A stretch of 61,881 bases of DNA. Origin: Nitrospirota bacterium (GTDB taxonomy: Bacteria; Nitrospirota; UBA9217). The number at the start of each line of letters is the position of its first letter. The first letter of the stretch is position 1. The DNA is taken from assembly GCA_963751455.1 (NCBI GenBank), contig CAVVUN010000005.1, positions 1-61,881 on the forward strand. Reading direction: 5' to 3'. The notes beneath the pieces are model-generated. The model saw nothing but the letters and a program-made list of their open reading frames with translations, ran no database searches and was not told where the DNA came from. The position numbers were made by a program, and so were the translations under genes. Shown here piece by piece: positions 39,677 to 52,272 of the stretch.

Positions 39677-39739
39677 ATCTTTTATCGTCCTTCGTCCATC
39701 GTGCTTCATCCATCGGTTTTTTAAACTGCGGAGGTGCGT

Positions 39740-41037
39740 ATGTACTGGCAGCCCGAATGTGAATGCATGGACAGGGAGGAGCTTGAGCAGCTCCAACTCG
39801 AGCGGCTCGAATCCACCCTGAACCGCGTGTACAGAAATGTTCCCTTTTACCGCAAGAAGTTCGATGAGCTCCGGTTCAATCCTGACGACCTCCGCTCTCT
39901 GGACGATCTTCGCAAGCTGCCGTTTACGGCCAAGAACGATCTGCGGGAAAACTACCCGTACGGCCTCTTTGCGGTGCCGCTCAGGGAAGTGGTGCGCGTC
40001 CACGCTTCATCGGGGACGACCGGCATGTTCACGGTCGTGGGCTATTCGCGGAACGATATCAAGACGTGGTCAAACCTGGTTGCGAGGGTCCTGGCAGCCG
40101 GGGGAATAACCAAGGACGACGTTATTCAGATCTCCTTTAATTACGGTCTTTTTACAGGCGCCTTCGGTCTTCACTACGGCGCGGAACGTCTCGGCGCCTC
40201 GGTGATACCCATCTCGAGTGGAAATACCAAGCGGCAGATCAAGATCATGCAGGATTTCAAGACAACCGCGCTCGTCGGTACCCCGAGCTATGCAATGCTG
40301 ATCGCGGACACCATGATGGAGATGGGCATCAATCCGAATTCGTTGTCGCTCAAATACGGCCTTTTCGGGGCTGAGCCGTGGTCGGATGCGATGCGCAAGG
40401 AAGTCGAAAACAAGCTGAAGATTATTGCCACAGACAACTACGGTCTTTCAGAAGTGATGGGCCCGGTGTGGCAGGTGAATGCCTCGAGCGGAACGGCCTG
40501 CACATCGCCGAAGACCACTTTTACGCGGAAGTGATCAACCCGGAGACGCTCGAACCGGTAAAGCGCGGGGAAGTGGGAGAACTGGTGATCACGACCCTGA
40601 CGAAGGAAGCGTTCCCGGTAATCCGCTACAGGACCCGCGATCTTACGCGCGTGATAGAAGACCAGTGCCCGTGCGGCCGCACCATGCGCCGCATGACGCG
40701 GGTCTTCGGCAGGACGGACGACATGCTGATCATCCGGGGAGTGAATGTCTTTCCGCAGCAGATCGAAACCGTGCTCTTTGAAGTCGATGGTGTCGCTCCT
40801 CATTACCAGATAGTGATTGACCGTAAGGGCGCGCTTGACGAGACGACCGTGAACGTTGAGGTCTCTGAATCGATGTTTTTTGACGAAATGAAAAAGCAAA
40901 GCGAGCTCAGGGAAACGATCAAGAAGCGGCTCGCTTCCGAGCTCGGCATCTCGGTTGATGTGAAACTGGTTGAAAAGAAAACACTGGAGCGGTTTGAAGG
41001 AAAAGCCAAGCGGGTCATAGATAATAGAAAATTTTAA
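39740..41037 (+). CDS. paaK: Phenylacetate-CoA ligase family, split by a 1-bp deletion near 40462
   Basis: [17 protein letters not shown] and [11 protein letters not shown], continuing in another frame as GVAGEC...IRYRTRD...[16 protein letters not shown]...GKAKRVID. Confidence 0.9.
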
Positions 41038-42511: not shown

Positions 42512-43150
42512 TCACTGAAAAAAGTTGGCCCGTTCCGTCGGTCTTTCATCCTGATCCGGTTTACTCGTCTCCACATAGGCAATGCGGTCCGCCTGTATCT
42601 CATAGGCCCGTTCAATTAATCCGTTCGGATCTGCATCCTGGAACATATCAGGATGCAGCTTTAATTGCGCTATCAAGCGTTGCTCCAGGTCAGCTTGCGT
42701 GTCGGTCATCTCGTAATCTATAATGTGCCGAATCGCGATTTGCCGACCGCGAAGATGCCTGCAAACCAATATGGACCTATGGCATGTCATCGGGTCTTTT
42801 TCCGCGCACATCAGCGCAAGAACATATTTTTTTTCCAGCCCGAGCCTGATCCGCTCCAATCCATTCTTGAACAACTGTGAGTCCGCTATCTTTTGATGGA
42901 CTGCCTTCCCATCCACATAACACGAACGGTCTTTCGGCCTCGCTCCCAATTCTTCACCGAGGAAAACATAGTCAATTCCATGGGACTTAAGGAATGTATT
43001 GAGTGGTTCCCGATTGAACTGTGGATTCCGGCTGCTATACGGTACAGATCGCACGTCACACAATGCGCTTATTTTGTACTGTTTGAGAAGGACCGTAAAA
43101 TTATTTATTGATCGGTCCGATTAGCCGATAGTGAAAAGCATGTTACTCAT
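42512..43150 (-). pseudogene. DUF488 family protein with an in-frame TAA at codon 10
   Basis: Reads MSNMLFTIG*SDRS...DVRSVPYS...LMCAEKDP..CHR. The stop at 43121-43123 falls on the conserved TIG(H/Y)S position. Confidence 0.8.
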
Positions 43151-43364
43151 ATGATGCAAAGCTCAAGGCACAGCTTTCACCTACAAATTACAACGGAGCT
43201 CGGTGAAAGTTACTGATTATTGATTGAAATGTGGCATGAACGCTCTGCTTGAAAGAGCAATTTTCGCTCTTCTTCTCGTGAATGTTAATAATCCTGTTAT
43301 TCACAGAAATAACTGGAGAGACCTCTCGACGAATCAAAAGCAAACATGCAACCTCTCGCTGAAA

Positions 43365-43760
43365 TTAACTATCGTTTCCATCTTTATGCCTTCGTCTGAC
43401 TTGACCTAGCCCATACCCACCTAGGCCGACGCTAATTATAGTGGCTACAAGTTTAATTAGCTCCATAGCTGATGAATCTTTACCCTGATATATTAAAAAG
43501 CCAGCAAGTATCAAAACAAAAACGGCAATAATGGTTCCACTTATTAGCAAATTTCTATCACGTCTGTTATCATGTACGAAAATCCTTTCTTCAAAGTCAT
43601 ACGACTGTTTCTCCATATCTTTTTGCCCCTCGATATACGAAGTAACAAGTGGACCAGCTGCTTTCAATAGGTCTTCTAATGTTGGCTGCATTTGCGCGGT
43701 TTTATGAGGAGAACCATGTACCACGACCTCATTTTCTTCTATTTGATTATCTGAATTCAT
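43365..43760 (-). CDS. Small two-TM membrane protein
   Basis: AGGAGG RBS, hydrophilic N-terminus and two C-terminal hydrophobic helices. Confidence 0.7.
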   Translation of the reverse strand: MNSDNQIEENEVVVHGSPHKTAQMQPTLEDLLKAAGPLVTSYIEGQKDMEKQSYDFEERIFVHDNRRDRNLLISGTIIAVFVLILAGFLIYQGKDSSAMELIKLVATIISVGLGGYGLGQVRRRHKDGNDS

Positions 43761-43796
43761 TTTTTCCTCCTAGTATAGATTGATCTATGCTAAATT

Positions 43797-44786
43797 TTAC
43801 ACTTCACATAAGAACCAATATTCGTCCTTATCAAAAGTCGCATTCTTTGTGAAGTCGTGAGAGTACCTCGAGTTCTCGATGAAAACTTGTATTTTTTCTC
43901 CGACCGGGTATATATGGATATTGCCGCATTGATTGTTCGTAAAATAGAGAAGATTTCGATAGTTCCATGCGGAATAAGCCAAGTGGTCGCTTGGTGCACA
44001 TCCAAAAAATGTAACGCGCGGGTTAACTGTGTCGAGAAAAGAGTAGTTTCGTTCAGATTTCCGTCCATGATGTGGCGCAAAAAGGACTGCAACATTTGTG
44101 ACTAAATCTTTGTGTTTGTCAAGTATGTATTCCCAAGTTTTATCGTTCGAATCTCCTGCGAATATAATTCGGCCTGCCGAACTGCGATAAACGATAACAT
44201 ATGACGCATCGTTAATATCTCCGCCATCATTAGCAATCCTTATAAGTTCCTCATTAGGCGACACAATGGAGATGTAATCTCCGTTTCCCTCTTTTTTATC
44301 GTTGTCGGCATTCCAATATATATTTGTGTCACCCGCGCGCGGCGTAATTACGCTTGTATTTTCGACTTTTCCCGCAATAATGTTCTGATAGAAATCCCAG
44401 TCGTCTTCACTATATGGGCATCCATTATTGAAATCAGGTTTCTCTCTCCGTATGCCACAATCCCAAAAATGCTTAACCGTTATCTTTCGAAAAAGATTCT
44501 TGATTCCATCCATATGATCCATATCGGGATGAGTCAAAATGAATCGCCAAATCGAAAAGATTCCTTTGCTCTCAAGGTAATCTATCGGATTAGTTGGGTA
44601 AGCGCACATGTTATAATTACCTAAAGGTTTCTGTGCTCGGCGCTCCTCGAACTCTGCCTTTGATATCTGTTCAAAATTTCCACAGCAAACGTCAATCATA
44701 GTGATACGATTACTGGAGCGTTCGAGAAGAAAACAGTCGCCCTCCTGGACATTCAGACAGTGTATTTTGGGATCAGGCATTGTCAT
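43797..44786 (-). CDS. ComEC/Rec2-type metallo-beta-lactamase-fold hydrolase (putative nuclease)
   Basis: LNVQEGDC, THPDMDHMDG, NDASYV, FAGDS and PHHG motifs. Confidence 0.88.
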   Translation of the reverse strand: MTMPDPKIHCLNVQEGDCFLLERSSNRITMIDVCCGNFEQISKAEFEERRAQKPLGNYNMCAYPTNPIDYLESKGIFSIWRFILTHPDMDHMDGIKNLFRKITVKHFWDCGIRREKPDFNNGCPYSEDDWDFYQNIIAGKVENTSVITPRAGDTNIYWNADNDKKEGNGDYISIVSPNEELIRIANDGGDINDASYVIVYRSSAGRIIFAGDSNDKTWEYILDKHKDLVTNVAVLFAPHHGRKSERNYSFLDTVNPRVTFFGCAPSDHLAYSAWNYRNLLYFTNNQCGNIHIYPVGEKIQVFIENSRYSHDFTKNATFDKDEYWFLCEV

Positions 44787-45234
44787 CCTCCTTTGCCGAC
44801 GTACGGCTCTTCTTGATGCCCCATGTTACTTGTGCAATGTCTTCTACTTTATCAATAAACTTATCGACATTAAGCCCGGCAATGAATGCAAGGGCATAGA
44901 AAGCGAGATTTGTTGGGCTGTCAGACTGTTTTGCTTCAAGAACGATTAACCCAGCTTTCAAAAATAAGCTGCTTATTACCCCGGTTATTATGCTCACAAT
45001 CGGTCGAATGAAGTACCACGGCAGCCACTTTTCACTCCATCGATCATAAACGCAGGCATTCAGATAGACTCCTCTAAGGCAGTAAGTTATTCCACCGATA
45101 CCGCCGCTAATTCCACAATAGAAAGCGAGCCTCAGTGAATCTGATGGGAGATCAATTTTTCCAAGGAGCAACAGCAAGCCGACAACGCAGTAGCTAGACA
45201 AGAGTAGAATTAAATATAAAAAAACACGTTTCAT
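44773..45234 (-). CDS. Membrane protein with 3-4 TM helices
   Basis: Hydrophobic segments with 'GGIGG', 'WYFIRPIVS' and 'AFIAGL'. Its stop overlaps the MBL start; AAGGTGAGG RBS. Confidence 0.75.
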   Translation of the reverse strand: MKRVFLYLILLLSSYCVVGLLLLLGKIDLPSDSLRLAFYCGISGGIGGITYCLRGVYLNACVYDRWSEKWLPWYFIRPIVSIITGVISSLFLKAGLIVLEAKQSDSPTNLAFYALAFIAGLNVDKFIDKVEDIAQVTWGIKKSRTSAKEDDNA

Positions 45235-45372
45235 ATGTAGATCCTCACCTTTGCGGTATTTAAGGTCCTCGTAATGAATTAGAAATGGATATTTTGCAAA
45301 AAATAGAAAATATATCTTAGCCGAATGTTCCTCGGTTAGGGCTGTTGTTATTGACCGCGTGACTTCCTCATT

Positions 45373-45879
45373 TCAAGCCCCTTCTGCTTTACAACTGTAA
45401 AGATATATTTCCGCTATCTCTTGGATTATGATTTTCCCTTCGTTTGTTGATGTATAGTTCCACACGGCGATTTTCCACTTCCTCTTTCCGGATAATATTG
45501 CCATTACCGGGTTCCGTGCCCTAGCACTTTTGCAACGCGCTATATTATCAAGTGTTGCAATGTCCCTTATGCTGAGCGACCCGAATCCGTCAGGGTGTGT
45601 ATGCCAATCTCCCAAATATGTGTGCCGGCGCCCTGACTCTTTATAGAGTCGAGCCACCTCCTGATCATGCCAAGTATAATCGGGAGTAAATGTCCCTACC
45701 TCATGTTTTGCCGACTTACCAGGCCCTATTACATCAACAATAACTACCTCGGTTTCCATAAAATATCCAATCAGGATGCCGCCTGTCTCAAGGGGATGCC
45801 TCAGATTGGCTTCCTGGAGCATCTTCTCTGCTGCTTCTATTTTGATCCAAACTTTTTTCTTTATTGATGGTTTTTGCAT
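45373..45879 (-). CDS. JAB/JAMM (Mov34/MPN+) metallo-isopeptidase
   Basis: ETGGILIG and YLGDWHTHP-x5-S-x2-D JAMM motif. Overlaps the 3' end of the E1 gene. Confidence 0.93.
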   Translation of the reverse strand: MQKPSIKKKVWIKIEAAEKMLQEANLRHPLETGGILIGYFMETEVVIVDVIGPGKSAKHEVGTFTPDYTWHDQEVARLYKESGRRHTYLGDWHTHPDGFGSLSIRDIATLDNIARCKSARARNPVMAILSGKRKWKIAVWNYTSTNEGKIIIQEIAEIYLYSCKAEGA

Positions 45880-47671
45880 GCAGGATGTCTAACAATCGAT
45901 TGGGTTATTCTTTCTATCGGGATCGCGTTGCCGGATGCATCCCGAAGATTGATAATTTCAATGTCCCACGGTATCCGAGGATACCCTCCCTGAATCCCTT
46001 CCATAACTGTTGAAATAGCCATTCGAACGCCGGCCAGGGATGTTTGAAGAGCGTCAAAGTTATTGCCGGTAAAAGTTGGGTCGCTGCAGCCCGCAGGGAT
46101 TACCTCGCCGACCGTCGTCTCATCTGCATTTGGAACAGGAATCTTTTTCTCCTCTATAGAGTGCCGTAGACAGTGACAACAGCCGTCCGATTCTCCATGT
46201 CTAAACCGCGCGACCATTCCTCCCCACGTACCGTTTGTTGCTGAAATAAATATATAAGGGATCCCCTTTCTCTGGCCATATCTGCCAAAAAATTCTGAAC
46301 GCCTTCATCCGCCGTAGCGTCAACGATGACATCAGCTTCGTTCAACATCTGCTCAACAATATCGTTTAAGGTGAGCGACACTTGCTCTTTACCATACAGA
46401 GATTGATCTCCTATTCTGGCATCATAACCAATCACCTTTGTATAGGGATAGTTCTTATTTAAAAGTTCCATGACCGCAATTGTTTTTCGTTTCCCCACTG
46501 CAGACAAGCCTATTATCCATCGTACTCCGTTACCCGCCGAGACCGTATCACAGTCAAGGATTCTCAGCTCACCGATGCCCGCTTTAGCAAATTCAATGGC
46601 ACAGGGAGATCCTATACAACCAAGACCAAACAGTGCGATTTTTTTCTCTGCCAAACCCCTCAGTTCCGGTACTCTACTGCTCATATCATCCTTTCCGGCT
46701 CTTTCTCCCTTGATAAAGAAAGGCTGTGTCTTTATTGTTGTAATTTTTTTTCCGCTCTTGATCGCCCTTTCCTGCCTAAAAATCCATCGAGCTATAAATA
46801 TCCAGGAGAGCGTTCCATCACTATCTCGATGAGACGTTTCATCTTCATATACGGACGCCACAACGTCTATCTTGAGATCTATCTCCCCTGGCACATCTGT
46901 TTTAATATTCCGTGCTGGCTGGGGTATAGTAGTTAAAATTGCAGGATTTTCTTTCGCCAATTGTTCAATGTATTGTTGTGGTTCGTTGCTTACGATCGGC
47001 TTATCTGTATGCTGCCATCTACCTTTAACTTTATGCGGATATAGCTTTGCTATAGATGGCGCTGCTGTGTACAGAATTTTGTTATTTCGATCTTTGACCT
47101 CGATAACTGCTCCCGCAAGCACGCTATGTTTGTCTGATGCCATGAATCCGACGACGAGGGCGCCATTCGGTCCTGCAAGCTTCCATTTGCTATCAATGAT
47201 GATATATGTACCTGGCGTAAAATCCATGTACCTTTCAACAGGTTCTGGATCACGAGATTCTAATTTATAACCACAGAGCGTTTCATGCGCCAGGACCTCT
47301 TCCTTGCTCGCCAGCTGGTTTGCTATCCTGATTTGCGCGAGCTGAGAGGAGAGAACAGCTGCGGCAGTATCTTCATAATGCCATTCCTGAGCAGACGCCG
47401 TAAGTAGGCAAAGGTTCTTTTGAAACAGTTGTTGATGGTACCGGAGGTTGAGTTCCGGAGCAACAGCCATGAATCGAAAATATGGATAATGGTCAGGGTA
47501 AACGATTTCAAGGTAAATCATCTCCGACCCTATCGGGAATCTCCCTTTAAGAACAACGACGCCTCTTTCAAATAGGTTTCTATCCACTTTGAAAGAGGCG
47601 CCTAATTTCGCGAGTGCTTTGAGCTCAAACTTGAGTCGCCCGCGATGGCGTTTCCACCATTTTTCTGCCAT
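45861..47671 (-). CDS. E2(UBC-like)-E1(ThiF) fusion protein, ~600 aa, split by a 1-bp deletion near 46263-46269
   Basis: N-terminal 'YPDHYPY...HQ...NLCLL...W' (E2 Cys). ThiF part has GLGCIGS, LDCDTV..GN.VR, GKRK and IVDATAD. After the frameshift it reads GIPYIFISAT.G.WGG, CCHC, PAGCSDPTF (E1 Cys) and HPAC. Confidence 0.88.
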
Positions 47672-47693
47672 TTCCTTTTTCTCCCACTTTGTG

Positions 47694-47828
47694 TTATCCT
47701 ACTTGCCTGTGATGTGATGGCTTAGGCGGTGATGCCGGACCAGGCGGCACCGGCGGATGATGCGGATGCTCCGGGTGTTCGGGATGGCCTGGCCGCTTTT
47801 CGTCATCCTTCTTATTTTCCTGACTCAT
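47694..47828 (-). CDS. Unannotated 44-aa His/Pro-rich peptide ending in Gly: MSQENKKDDEKRPGHPEHPEHPHHPPVPPGPASPPKPSHHRQVG
   Basis: Hand-translated from ATG 47828 to TAA 47694. AAAGGAGGGG RBS, first ORF after a consensus promoter, 22 nt before the E2-E1 start. Confidence 0.8.
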   Translation of the reverse strand: MSQENKKDDEKRPGHPEHPEHPHHPPVPPGPASPPKPSHHRQVG

Positions 47829-47952
47829 AGTTGTTGGCCCCTCCTTTCATCGGGATTGCTAACTACGAACGTAGAGTTAGCACTTATTACATGAGCTTTT
47901 TAGATATCATAAGTTAAATTGATCTTTTAAATACGTCAGTCAAACTTTCATT

Positions 47953-47982
47953 ATTATAATTCAAGAGCCTATGGTTTGTCAA
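47953..47982 (-). promoter_or_regulatory. Consensus sigma70 promoter of the peptide/E2-E1/JAB operon
   Basis: TTGACA-N18-TATAAT on the minus strand. Confidence 0.8.
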
Positions 47983-47992
47983 GATAAAGTAC

Positions 47993-48007
47993 TTGAATTA
48001 AATTCAA
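47993..48007. promoter_or_regulatory. Palindromic candidate operator
   Basis: TTGAATT-a-AATTCAA, 10 bp upstream of the -35 box. Confidence 0.45.
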
Positions 48008-48088
48008 TAAAATCAATGCTATACATTTTCCTAAAAAAATAATTAATAAGGTCATTTAAATTATTTAAAAAAACATAGTCATTTAAAT

Positions 48089-48115
48089 TTGACAAATAGG
48101 ATTTAGTGGTATAAT
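48089..48115 (+). promoter_or_regulatory. sigma70 promoter of the HTH/peptidase pair
   Basis: TTGACA-N15-TATAAT with an extended -10 (TGgTATAAT). Preceded by the direct repeat GTCATTTAAATT at 48051 and 48078. Confidence 0.65.
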
Positions 48116-48163
48116 ATTTCCAACTTAGAAACTCTCCTACCGATTCTTTCTGGAATTTCTCTC

Positions 48164-48505
48164 ATGCTTTGGGTTTACGGCATAATAGGCAAAAAAATAT
48201 ACGACCAGCGAAAGGCCTCAGGAAAAAGCCAAGAAGAATTGGGGAAGATTCTAGATCTTACCAGGACTTCAATCGCAAATTTCGAAGCAGGCACGCAGGC
48301 AGTTTCAATAAGTGACCTTTATAAAATTGCCTTATTTTTTAACAAAGACATAAATGACTTTTTACCAACTACCGACGAGGTCAAAAATTTACAAAAAAAG
48401 CCAGAAGAAAAGGTAATAGAAGATGGTTCTTTGGATGAGACAACAAGATCTGAGCTATCTGCATTTCTTCAAAGGATAAAAGAAGAGAAGAGTAAAAATA
48501 GTTAG
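48164..48505 (+). CDS. XRE/Cro-C1 HTH transcriptional regulator
   Basis: IGKKI...RK..GKSQEELG..L.LTRTSIANFEAG.Q. Confidence 0.9.
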   Translation: MLWVYGIIGKKIYDQRKASGKSQEELGKILDLTRTSIANFEAGTQAVSISDLYKIALFFNKDINDFLPTTDEVKNLQKKPEEKVIEDGSLDETTRSELSAFLQRIKEEKSKNS

Positions 48506-48518
48506 GAAAGGAGCAAAT

Positions 48519-49016
48519 ATGCGCGGCTCAAGTTCAGCCAAAAGGCAAGCTAGAAGAATTAGAGCTAAGCTGGAGAGCAATCAGAGAGATATAGACATTA
48601 AGCAGGTAGCAGAATCACAGGGTATTCGAGTTTATGAAGAGGATTTTAGTGGCGATACTATCTCCGGACTTATGCTGAGAGATGAAAAGGGTTACATTAT
48701 TGCCGTAAATAAGGGACACGCAGATACTAGAAAGAGATTTACAATTGCTCATGAGCTCGGCCACTTCTTATTACATAAACAAGAAAACTTGCACTATGAT
48801 CTTCAGCAGAATGGTAAAGAAGTTTTCTTTAGAGCTGATGGCATCATAAGCTCTCATGAAAGAGAAGCTAACCATTTTGCTGCCGAACTTCTCATGCCAG
48901 AAGATATGATTCGTGAAGACTTCCAGGATAATCCAGACATAAACAAGTTAGCTAACATATATAAAGTAAGTGAATCAGCGATGATGTATAGACTATCTAA
49001 TTTGAACCTTGTGTAG
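48519..49016 (+). CDS. ImmA/IrrE family Zn metallopeptidase
   Basis: RKRFTIAHELGH and EREANHFAAELLMP. Confidence 0.93.
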   Translation: MRGSSSAKRQARRIRAKLESNQRDIDIKQVAESQGIRVYEEDFSGDTISGLMLRDEKGYIIAVNKGHADTRKRFTIAHELGHFLLHKQENLHYDLQQNGKEVFFRADGIISSHEREANHFAAELLMPEDMIREDFQDNPDINKLANIYKVSESAMMYRLSNLNLV

Positions 49017-49340
49017 TTTCGGATAACTGATACTCGCCTGGCAATGAAACAAAAAGAAAGGCTTAGAGAATTTTTAACTCTAAGCCTTTTCATTTTCCTT
49101 AAATACGCCGCTTAACACTGTCTTCTCAGGGTGCAGGTCTATACTGTTTACCTTTCCCCCGAGTGGGCTCTCGGGTACACAACTGAGTGATCGCCGATCA
49201 TCTTGGATGCACTTCCCGTTCGAGATGGGAAACTTCTCTCCCGATTTTCTATCAAGATTAAAACCCGCGGCTAGAGACAAATATTGGGGTCGGGTCGAAG
49301 TCCCCTGGGTCAAATCTCATTTATCCAAAACGAAGCAGAA

Positions 49341-49843: not shown

Positions 49844-50206
49844 TTATGCATTCTCCTCGATGATATGTTTCCCTTTTTCGGTCAGCCGGTATTTCTGTAG
49901 ACGGCTGTTTGGCTTGTCCGGAATGGTATATTCAACCAGTTCTTGGGTAAGCAACTCACCCACAGTTTTTTTCAAAACTCCGGTCTTGCTTCTCAGCCCC
50001 AGGGTATTCACCAATTCGTTCATGGAAAGCGGTCCTTGCCGCAGGGCGCGCATGATTTGATTCGACTGGGCCTCTGACCGGGCTCCCTGCTCGACTTGAA
50101 CAACTGCTTCAGAAACGGCTTTACGCCAAAGCGTCAGGATGAAATATCCGGAATCTATACGGAACTCGGGCTGCCGTATGCCTGCGGTCCGGCAGCGTTC
50201 GAGCAT
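49844..50206 (-). pseudogene. C-terminal fragment of a RecG-C/Fic-associated winged-helix protein
   Basis: 'EYTIPDKPNSRLQKYRLTEKG' terminal motif; N-terminal domains are absent. Confidence 0.6.
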
Positions 50207-50220
50207 ATCGACAGTTCACC

Positions 50221-51416
50221 TCAGCGAGCGACCCATTCCGCCGCCGGAGTAGCAGGAACTTTTCCAGGGGGATGCCGTCTTCGCCGACCAACAGTTTTCT
50301 CTTCGGCTTGAAGGCTTTTTCAAAGGCGTCCGTCCCCGGAAGCCCCTCCTTGAGAGCTCCGCTCTTGATCTCAATGGCGACAACGGTCTTGCCGGATGTT
50401 AGGACGAAATCCACCTCCCGGCTTCTTTCGCGCCAATAAAAAATCTCGACGCCCATTCCCGCGGCGCTATTGATCAGATGGGCGCCGACCGCCGATTCCA
50501 CCAGCCTGCCCCAAGTCTCCCGGTCCTCCCGGGCTTCATCGAAGGCGAGCCGCGCTTGCGCGCTGATGAGCGCCGTGTTCAATACCTGAAGCTTGGGGCT
50601 CGACGCCCGCTCGCGGACCCGATGCGCGGCGAACTTGTGCAGGCCGGTCAGCATGCCGGCGCCGGCAAGCAGCTCCAGGTAGTGGCCAGGGTCGTCGTAT
50701 TGCCGGCGTCCTGGAGCTGCCCGATCATCTTCTGATAAGAAAGGATCTGGCCGGAAAATGAGCAGCCCAGTTGAAAAAGACGCCTGAGCAGCGCGGGTTT
50801 GTCAACCCGTGTCAGGAGCAGAATGTCGCGGGAAAGAGTCGTCTCGATGAGCGAATCGATTATGTAGCGCGACCAGCGCTGCCGGTCGGCGATCAGGTCC
50901 GCCGCTCCGGGATAGCGCGCCGAAATAGATGAAACGGTCAAGGTCCCACCCGAAGGCTTCACGCATCTCGGCGTAGGACCAGTGGACCACGGGAATGGTC
51001 TCGAACCTGCCTGCAAGGCTTTCGGTCAGCCCCCGCTGAATGAGGAGCGGCGCCGAACCCAGGAGAACGACCTTGAGGGATATTTTTCTGCGGGTATCGC
51101 TGTCCCAGAGCCTTTTTACCACGTCTGACCATCCGGTCACCTTCTGGACCTCGTCCAGAACAAGGAGCGCCTCGCCCTTGCCCGCGGTCTCCGCTGCCAG
51201 CGACCTTCCCGTTTCCCACTGCTGTTCGATCCATGCCCGGCTCTGAAGGGTTGGTTCATCCGCTGAGGCATAATGGACCGGGACCCGGGTCTCGTCAGCC
51301 ATCTGGCGCACCATCGTGGTCTTCCCCGTTTGCCTCGGCCCCGCGAGGACCTGGATGAACCGGCGCGGCTCCTGCACTCTCTTCACCAGCGTATGATACA
51401 TGGGGCGATGATACAT
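50221..51416 (-). pseudogene. AAA+ ATPase with DUF4143 domain, three frameshifts
   Basis: GPRQTGKTT, LDEVQK, ESLAGRF, (GGYP), GRLVESAVG and EVDFV..IEIKS. Frame breaks near 50917, 50684 and 50251. Confidence 0.82.
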
Positions 51417-51738: not shown

Positions 51739-52272
51739 TTATTTATCTTTGTTTTTCAAGTTTTCAGTCGCTATGGCAATATCGAAGGCCTGCCCGAGAA
51801 CTCTTGCCGCCTCGTTAAAATATTTTGGACCAAGTGTCCCGTTCCCATTTGCCCGGTATTCCGCTATGTCTTCGTCCAGCAATTTCCGGATCTTATCAAA
51901 CTGCTCCATTGTTTTACTGTTTGCGATACCTTTCCCTTTTTCGTACTCGTACGCTTTGCGAAATTTCAGCGTGATGTCAGCTATAGCTGTCTCATTCTCG
52001 GTAAAGGACTTTGTATCAAATGTCTCAACAAGCATCATGGCTTCGGCTTTAAGATCAGTCAGGTTTCTATAAGTAGTAACGTCGTGGTAGGTAATGGGGA
52101 TGGCACAACTTATCAGCCACGTGCTCAAGGGCAACGTGACAACGAGCGAGAAAATATAACGCGGTAAAGGATTATGGATTTGTGCCAAGTGACGCTGATT
52201 CCGTAAGGGGATACTCTTTTTCTGGATGGATTCTAAATCAACCATAATCCTCCATGAGTGATTTGGATGCAA
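51739..52272 (-). CDS. Hypothetical lipoprotein
   Basis: Hydrophobic stretch ending LISC followed by a helical domain. Start uncertain. Confidence 0.6.
   Translation of the reverse strand: MHPNHSWRIMVDLESIQKKSIPLRNQRHLAQIHNPLPRYIFSLVVTLPLSTWLISCAIPITYHDVTTYRNLTDLKAEAMMLVETFDTKSFTENETAIADITLKFRKAYEYEKGKGIANSKTMEQFDKIRKLLDEDIAEYRANGNGTLGPKYFNEAARVLGQAFDIAIATENLKNKDK

Follow-up and report, generated by a model that had tools for sequence, protein, structure and literature searches.

The window analysed here, a stretch of 61,881 nucleotides from a Nitrospirota bacterium (contig CAVVUN010000005.1, positions 1 to 61,881), carries on its minus strand a gene for a Pro/His-rich peptide of 44 amino acids (47694..47828), predicted to be a conjugation tag, followed by a gene for a Cap2-like fusion of E2, linker and E1 (45861..47671) and one for a JAB/Cap3-like metallopeptidase (45373..45879), which overlaps the end of the E1 part. 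The peptide is conserved far beyond chance, and comparison of the sequences of related loci indicates that peptide, E2-E1 and JAB are a conserved, widespread three-gene cassette. Judging from this comparison and from the analogy with Cap2 and Cap3, we consider it likely, at roughly three chances in four, that the cassette tags other molecules in a ubiquitin-like manner, its modifier being an unfolded proline-rich peptide.

A conserved proline-rich tail in front of the ligase gene

The window peptide ends in HRQVG (more fully, PPKPSHHRQVG), is preceded by a strong Shine-Dalgarno sequence and has no match in Pfam, PADLOC or NCBIfam. A protein search gave 19 relatives at E <= 1e-10, and an alignment of seven E2-E1 sequences served as the query for related loci, the broad alignment A1 being too divergent for this use. 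We took 40 loci from species-representative genomes (about ten phyla, going by the record titles) and, out of 226 metagenome loci, the best 80. Of these 120 loci 98 could be scored, while 22 were dropped, 12 without the N-terminus of E2-E1 and 10 with less than 200 nucleotides upstream. A locus was counted when an open reading frame (ORF) with the pattern P..P..[RK]x[VIY][GA], followed by 0-4 residues, ended within 160 nucleotides of the E2-E1 start. The pattern was composed after viewing L001-L040, and the metagenome loci are the held-out set.

Such an ORF lies just before E2-E1 in 90 of the 98 loci, as against 41 of 36,967 background stop-bounded segments, and the held-out set shows the pattern in 53 of 59 cases. 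Among the eight misses, a variant of the tail can be made out in six (L043, L061, L064, L094, L119, L028), and the two that have none (L038, L056) match the query only in part. Among plasmids, 13 records were found, six loci were examined and all six carry the peptide, which is annotated in only one of the six gene tables examined, tables that are themselves incomplete. A profile built from 42 peptides and run against 1.84 billion proteins gave 14 matches, every one of them with the motif.

The last 16 residues follow the consensus PGPxxPPxPPxxRxVG. There are near-copies among the loci, and the number of distinct tails is 77, of which 71 end in VG, three in VA and three in YG; 12 of the 77 run one to four residues past the Gly. 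At the conserved residues (80 distinct tails) the entropy of the third codon position is 1.8-2.0 bits and all synonymous codons are used. Because synonymous positions are thus free, the constraint on the tail acts at the level of the protein.

The 57 distinct free peptides are 33-69 amino acids long (median 48), consist of 36% Pro and 7% Lys, are nearly devoid of hydrophobic residues and have a short repeat-rich leader before the tail. Their stop codon mostly lies within a few bases of the E2-E1 start. Of 74 candidate starts, some of which are internal to fusions, 52 are preceded by a Shine-Dalgarno-like site. One peptide gene (L031:395-676) encodes two tails head to tail and resembles a polyubiquitin precursor. 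No account of a free peptide as substrate turned up in the literature searched, a body of texts short of most subscription papers and of bioRxiv supplements, which may show these tails.

Ligase, peptidase and tail fusions

The best match of the E2-E1 family profile in the Protein Data Bank is Cap2 (7TO3, E 3e-21); eukaryotic E2s are matched by the N-terminal part of the profile. For P0002, an intact homologue, a model with a predicted local distance difference test score of 94 likewise has 7TO3 as its best whole-chain match in Foldseek (E 4e-23, TM-score 0.61, 16% identity). Structural re-ranking yielded a list in which the E1 domain dominated and Cap2 was absent. In 85 of 85 sequences the residues C88, C501, C529 and C599 of P0002 are invariant, and the adenylation residues are invariant or nearly so. 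The putative E1 catalytic cysteine is assigned among the C-terminal ones by position only, without alignment to C548 of Cap2. The window protein, which matches ThiF and the PADLOC E1-E2 model, is spread over two frames; its E2 Cys88, its adenylation motifs and its conserved C-terminal cysteines are all present in their respective frames. Four loci (L004, L005, L008, L011) encode E2-linker and E1 in separate ORFs, in each case divided at the same Lys/Arg-rich loop near residue 300; in L008 the two overlap by ATGA. This is possibly a natural split form.

A JAB gene follows E2-E1 in all 102 loci with at least 600 nucleotides downstream, and the pattern HxHP..S..D is found in 92 of 106 readable copies. 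The window copy matches Prok-JAB at 1e-11. With 55 against 200 bits, JAB stays under the cut-off of the NCBIfam Cap3 equivalog.

The earlier note on this DNA had staked its reading on homologous loci keeping the peptide and lacking a cyclase, and this held: the tail belongs to a free peptide in 74 of the 90 matching loci and is the C-terminus of a larger protein in the other 16. In three loci it is fused to a CD-NTase (L001, L003, L072), which in every case follows a patatin or SAVED effector, and in three to a ThsB-like TIR protein (L104, L111, L114). It further ends tandem DUF1508 in two loci, DUF3892 in six, and in two (L096:932-1285, L117:6640-6990) an unnamed helical domain of about 85 amino acids without a Pfam or NCBIfam match. 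The enzymes that bear the tail are 200-340 amino acids long and belong to classes known or proposed as Cap2 substrates. In a quick, unrooted tree of 76 rows the fusions occupy four separate places among free-peptide loci. Free-peptide loci lie on all sides of the single CD-NTase/TIR branch, and it is with them that the window groups. Another locus (L053:9302-13603) has, behind its free-peptide cassette, a separate operon that contains two CD-NTase-like genes, one of which has a different tail, and further genes.

Cap2 is known to adenylate and conjugate the disordered C-terminus of CD-NTases, and Cap3 cuts after it (10.1101/2022.03.31.486616). Since CD-NTases, TIR and DUF proteins in the slot before the ligase share the tail, and Cap2 acts on such C-termini, this slot probably holds the substrate. 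The free peptide is likewise the likely conjugated modifier, because it ends in the same tail as CD-NTases, whose C-termini are proven Cap2 substrates.

Proposed mechanism and alternative explanations

The biochemistry of Cap2 and Cap3 suggests how such a tagging system would work. A dimeric E1 domain would adenylate the terminal Gly, which would be passed on through thioesters with the E1 and then the E2 cysteine and be ligated to an amine, most likely that of a lysine in a host or phage protein. JAB would trim the extensions of one to four residues that some copies carry, and it would also remove the tag. The tail could thereby be a portable 'conjugate me' signal, with several cargo domains fused to it. 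The gene context suggests that DNA damage or infection induces the system, through a divergent pair of helix-turn-helix (HTH) and IrrE-like genes or through a WYL protein elsewhere, and it also suggests an anti-phage or stress role; these are the weakest steps, and we lean only slightly towards them.

It is also conceivable, if unlikely, that the peptide is the substrate of E2-E1 and is joined not to a protein target but to a lipid, to a small molecule or to the peptide itself, as in ATG8-like lipidation, in chains or in a microcin-C-like modified peptide. The E1 part is structurally as near to UBA5, MoeB, ThiF and MccB as to anything, and Cap2 itself resembles ATG7/ATG3 (10.1101/2022.03.31.486616). 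Furthermore, the free peptides contain 7% Lys, and no target gene is encoded nearby. Against this stand the whole-chain best match to Cap2, which is a protein-lysine ligase, and the constant presence of JAB. Nor does any transporter or tailoring gene family recur among 107 non-redundant loci.

Quite improbable is a wider system, favoured by the earlier note, in which the membrane and metallo-β-lactamase (MBL) proteins encoded downstream would be effectors or partners under common HTH-IrrE control. Downstream of JAB, on the same strand, lie genes for a membrane protein of 153 amino acids without a named family (44773..45234), for an MBL-fold hydrolase (43797..44780), whose start overlaps the stop of the former gene, and for a membrane protein of 131 amino acids (43365..43760). 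The gap of 138 nucleotides between JAB and the first of these genes was considered as the site of a terminator, which we reject, its fold being no better than that of shuffles (z 0.93). Both examined relatives of the 153-residue protein (L138/L152, L132), a protein with relatives in 180 mostly enterobacterial plasmid records, adjoin genes that pass the NCBIfam 6A-MBL cut-off, and in the two plasmid loci examined for MBL relatives these have other E2 genes in their vicinity; membrane and MBL genes of these kinds therefore recur near ubiquitin-like systems. However, tblastn gave no relative of any of the three proteins in the 61 core loci that have 3 kb of downstream sequence, nor does an MBL metal motif occur within 4 kb in the same 61. 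The MBL protein has no tail. It belongs to a large family (1661 relatives), which was found in four of 400 other genomes in the phylum, in no case with E2-E1 or JAB nearby. The genes are also absent from the 18 kb covered in G173, the closest relative, whose DNA resembles the window only at 45539-47837. A caveat of the same note, that they may be a separate unit, has thus turned out the better reading, and we regard them as co-resident cargo of a defence island, outside the conserved core.

That the peptide is a ribosome-stalling polyproline leader which tunes translation of E2-E1 would suit its 36% proline and a stop codon that mostly lies a few bases from the E2-E1 start. It is nevertheless highly improbable: the same tail terminates enzymes of 200-340 residues, Arg-x-Val-Gly is kept even before extra residues, and a tandem copy exists. 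Finally, decay of type II operons of antiphage signalling based on cyclic oligonucleotides (CBASS), with only the tail of the cyclase retained, is largely refuted and next to nil, for although three sister loci are complete CBASS operons that bear the tail, 74 of the 90 loci have free peptides with their own start, mostly a Shine-Dalgarno-like site and a distinct repeat-rich N-terminus in many phyla, these surround the single CD-NTase/TIR branch, and the catalytic residues are intact.

Points against the proposed tagging system and the state of the window copy

Several points weigh against the proposed tagging system. Conjugation itself we infer from sequence comparison and from the analogy with Cap2 and Cap3. 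No conserved effector or target gene lies within 3.5 kb in the 107 non-redundant loci. Septu-like, Thoeris, Kiwa, AbiEii and McrBC neighbours occur in single loci each. An IrrE-like gene upstream on the opposite strand is found in 16 of 63 non-redundant loci and a WYL gene in three of 63, and 12 of the 16 IrrE-like loci had served to build the profile. The loci were the best-scoring 40 and 80 that match one or two short E2-E1 patterns, so that divergent family members are under-sampled.

Lastly, the E2-E1 frame of the window is broken near 46,260. If the frameshift is real, the window copy would be inactive, because the E1 domain is interrupted ahead of its conserved C-terminal cysteines. An error of assembly is plausible, since comparison with a same-family genome shows a frameshift in this assembly for one of 49 orthologues and two more window genes seem split, one at 39734-41037, presumably phenylacetate-CoA-ligase-like, and one at 50121-51416 (AAA_14/DUF4143).

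Among 60 related genomes searched, only G173, of the same family, has the cassette. Its E2-E1 is intact (602 amino acids, 63-65% identity), its JAB is 69% identical, and its peptide of 47 amino acids is near-identical to that of the window. None of the other five window genes lies in the 18 kb covered around this cassette (L151:6265-11039), which is flanked by what we take to be mobile-element-like genes, an AAA ATPase and phage-like proteins. No viral copy of the cassette was confirmed in IMG/VR or in 50,697 phage records.

Regulators and neighbouring genes

On the plus strand, divergent from the cassette, lie two likely optional regulators, an XRE HTH repressor that is CapH-like (48164..48505; HTH_3 9e-12, PADLOC capH 2.6e-8) and a short form of ImmA/IrrE-type HExxH metallopeptidase (48519..49016; Peptidase_M78 9e-27). 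The peptidase has 165 amino acids, an ImmA-like size, and its match to the CapP model (242 positions) is confined to positions 4-153, so it would lack the C-terminal part, which in CapP is a GAF domain. The CapH/CapP layout of a divergent HTH gene and a HExxH peptidase gene upstream is thus present, and the GAF domain on the peptidase is absent. The control by an HTH-IrrE pair that was expected for this system does recur, namely in the 16 loci, and it is optional. Reported rates of CapH/CapP association, 15% for Bil and 31% for Bub in the parts of the reports available, are comparable to the frequency of IrrE-like or WYL genes here. In L126 and L128 (NGR234, Sphingobium) the cassette is instead divergent from an Xre/MbcA-RES toxin-antitoxin pair.

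Near the core, the only recurrent neighbours are regulators and DUF2188, the latter in 7 of 107 loci. The label DUF2188 is tentative and was given by likeness to a PDC-S16 match. Three of the six plasmid copies (L127, L128, L130) sit amid copper/cadmium resistance genes. With His-rich peptides and such neighbours a link to metal stress is conceivable, and the clustering of plasmid cargo may explain the picture as well.

Relation to known systems

The closest relative among known systems is type II CBASS (Iyer-Aravind class 6b, PDB 7TO3). Both have an E2-linker-E1 protein with its cysteines, a separate JAB and an upstream substrate gene whose product ends in a disordered Gly/Ala tail, and the three sister loci are true CBASS operons with a tail of the window type. 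In contrast to CBASS, most loci here have neither CD-NTase nor effector, and the slot holds a peptide of 33-69 amino acids without a folded domain. In the window, the Cap2-type fusion (as judged on intact P0002 and the family) and the position of JAB agree with CBASS, whereas the operon has no CD-NTase gene and no second-messenger-sensing effector. CBASS effector models run against the membrane and MBL proteins of the window gave nothing beyond a weak CARF_TM match in PADLOC (E 0.008). In Bacillus, an isopeptide bond to lysines of PspA has been reported (PMC11153139).

The classes 6a and 6b were defined by Iyer in 2006, in a text whose available part makes no mention of the peptide (PMC1779556). 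Row 6b of its Table 1 lists RhNGR234a and Asp., which may match the NGR234 and Arthrobacter plasmid copies. TIR proteins with Gly tails beside cap2/cap3 are known from Thoeris operons (10.64898/2025.12.03.692087), similar to L104, L111 and L114. In the available part of that report the tails are described on TIR enzymes and free peptides are not. Thus, the arrangement with a free peptide differs from Thoeris with Cap2/Cap3 as so described.

The 6A-MBL system, attributed to van den Berg 2024, corresponds to Iyer class 6a. It resembles the window in that E2, E1, JAB and an MBL gene share one neighbourhood, and it can be under CapH/CapP. It differs in that 6A has E2-E1-JAB as a single chain and its own MBL family, whereas JAB is a separate gene here. 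Membership was rejected, as the window scores 84 against 320 bits (NF058523) and its MBL 30 against 220 (NF058524), while true members score 662 and 426 bits against the same two models. Operons of classes 6a and 6e, and such with DUF2188 and DUF3892, have been linked to CapH/CapP, according to the accessible text of Lau 2022 (10.1101/2022.04.27.489752).

With Bil and Bub the cassette shares a free-standing modifier, probable JAB pre-processing after Gly, DUF1508 fusions and frequent control by CapH/CapP or WYL, as far as the available texts describe these systems. BilA also extends past its Gly before JAB trimming (10.1101/2023.09.26.559546), and DUF1508-Ubl fusions have been described (Gong 2024; 10.1101/2024.11.21.623966). 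Unlike the peptides here, the modifier of Bil and Bub is a beta-grasp protein; the E1/E2 architecture is also different, and Bub lacks catalytic cysteines. We reject membership for free peptides of 33-69 amino acids with 36% Pro and without a beta-grasp or family match. Small disordered protein tags do occur in bacteria, as exemplified by Pup, which is ligated by a glutamine-synthetase-like enzyme and not by E1/E2.

The surrounding island

All ORFs that the earlier note had listed were found in our check of ORFs and translations, and its other descriptions mostly held as well. Guanine-plus-cytosine content is 0.40-0.45 across about 43-50 kb as compared to 0.50-0.58 in the flanks, and HicAB, DUF488, Fic-like, AAA/DUF4143 and HepT/MNT genes (Pfam) flank the island, which bears out an AT-rich island among toxin-antitoxin modules, here the HicAB and HepT/MNT pairs. 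The claim that cyclase and beta-grasp modifier are both missing is upheld by the lack of such matches among 18 window proteins in Pfam and 11 in PADLOC, and the MBL protein does end in CEV. The numbers of transmembrane helices had been put too high: where 3-4 and 2 had been counted, a strict hydropathy scan gave 2 and 1 for the proteins of 153 and 131 amino acids, respectively.

A predicted sigma-70-type promoter match (TTGACA-18-TATAAT; 47953..47982, minus strand) lies about 125 nucleotides before the peptide start. It is the sole 12/12 site among 16 in 43000-49200, a total not above that of shuffles (13.7 +/- 3.8).

The MBL-fold hydrolase carries the motif THPDMDH and matches PADLOC PDC-M48B at 1.6e-29. 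In its family (L122-L125, L132, L133) the gene is usually preceded by one of 210-270 amino acids without a PADLOC family and often followed by a second MBL gene; the family looks like a candidate defence module of its own, PDC-M48B-like. Cap2-like systems may have a hitherto unrecognised partner in the 153-residue protein. On E. coli plasmid pSE11-2, a relative of it and 6A-MBL genes lie behind a WYL gene. For the protein of 131 amino acids there is a weak DUF2335-like lead, an atlas score of 0.91 to a cluster with 40% DUF2335. The same island also holds a DUF488 protein (42512-43063; PADLOC PDC-M45B, 9e-58) and a lipoprotein-like ORF of 177 amino acids without a family match (51739-52272).

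Implications

Put at its broadest, the cassette may be a cascade of E1, E2 and deubiquitinase, spread over many phyla, with a foldless polyproline modifier of 35-60 residues, a kind of 'minimal ubiquitin'. CD-NTases, TIR enzymes and small DUF domains would have acquired its last 16 residues in evolution as a portable ligation tag, Cap2-type conjugation of immune enzymes may in this clade stem from capture of a free tag, and phage or host proteins would be disabled or marked by the tag once DNA has been damaged. This whole scenario we judge about as probable as its opposite.

If the cassette is a tagging system, the predicted substrate is a bare peptide, one mostly missed by annotation, and conjugation of the Cap2 type would be separable from cyclase signalling. 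The purpose of Cap2 ligation would then be testable in a three-gene system, which is present in cultured strains such as Sinorhizobium fredii NGR234, S. meliloti LMB1, Hymenobacter and Arthrobacter FB24. It would furthermore provide a ligation tag that is short and genetically encoded, together with the enzyme that erases it.

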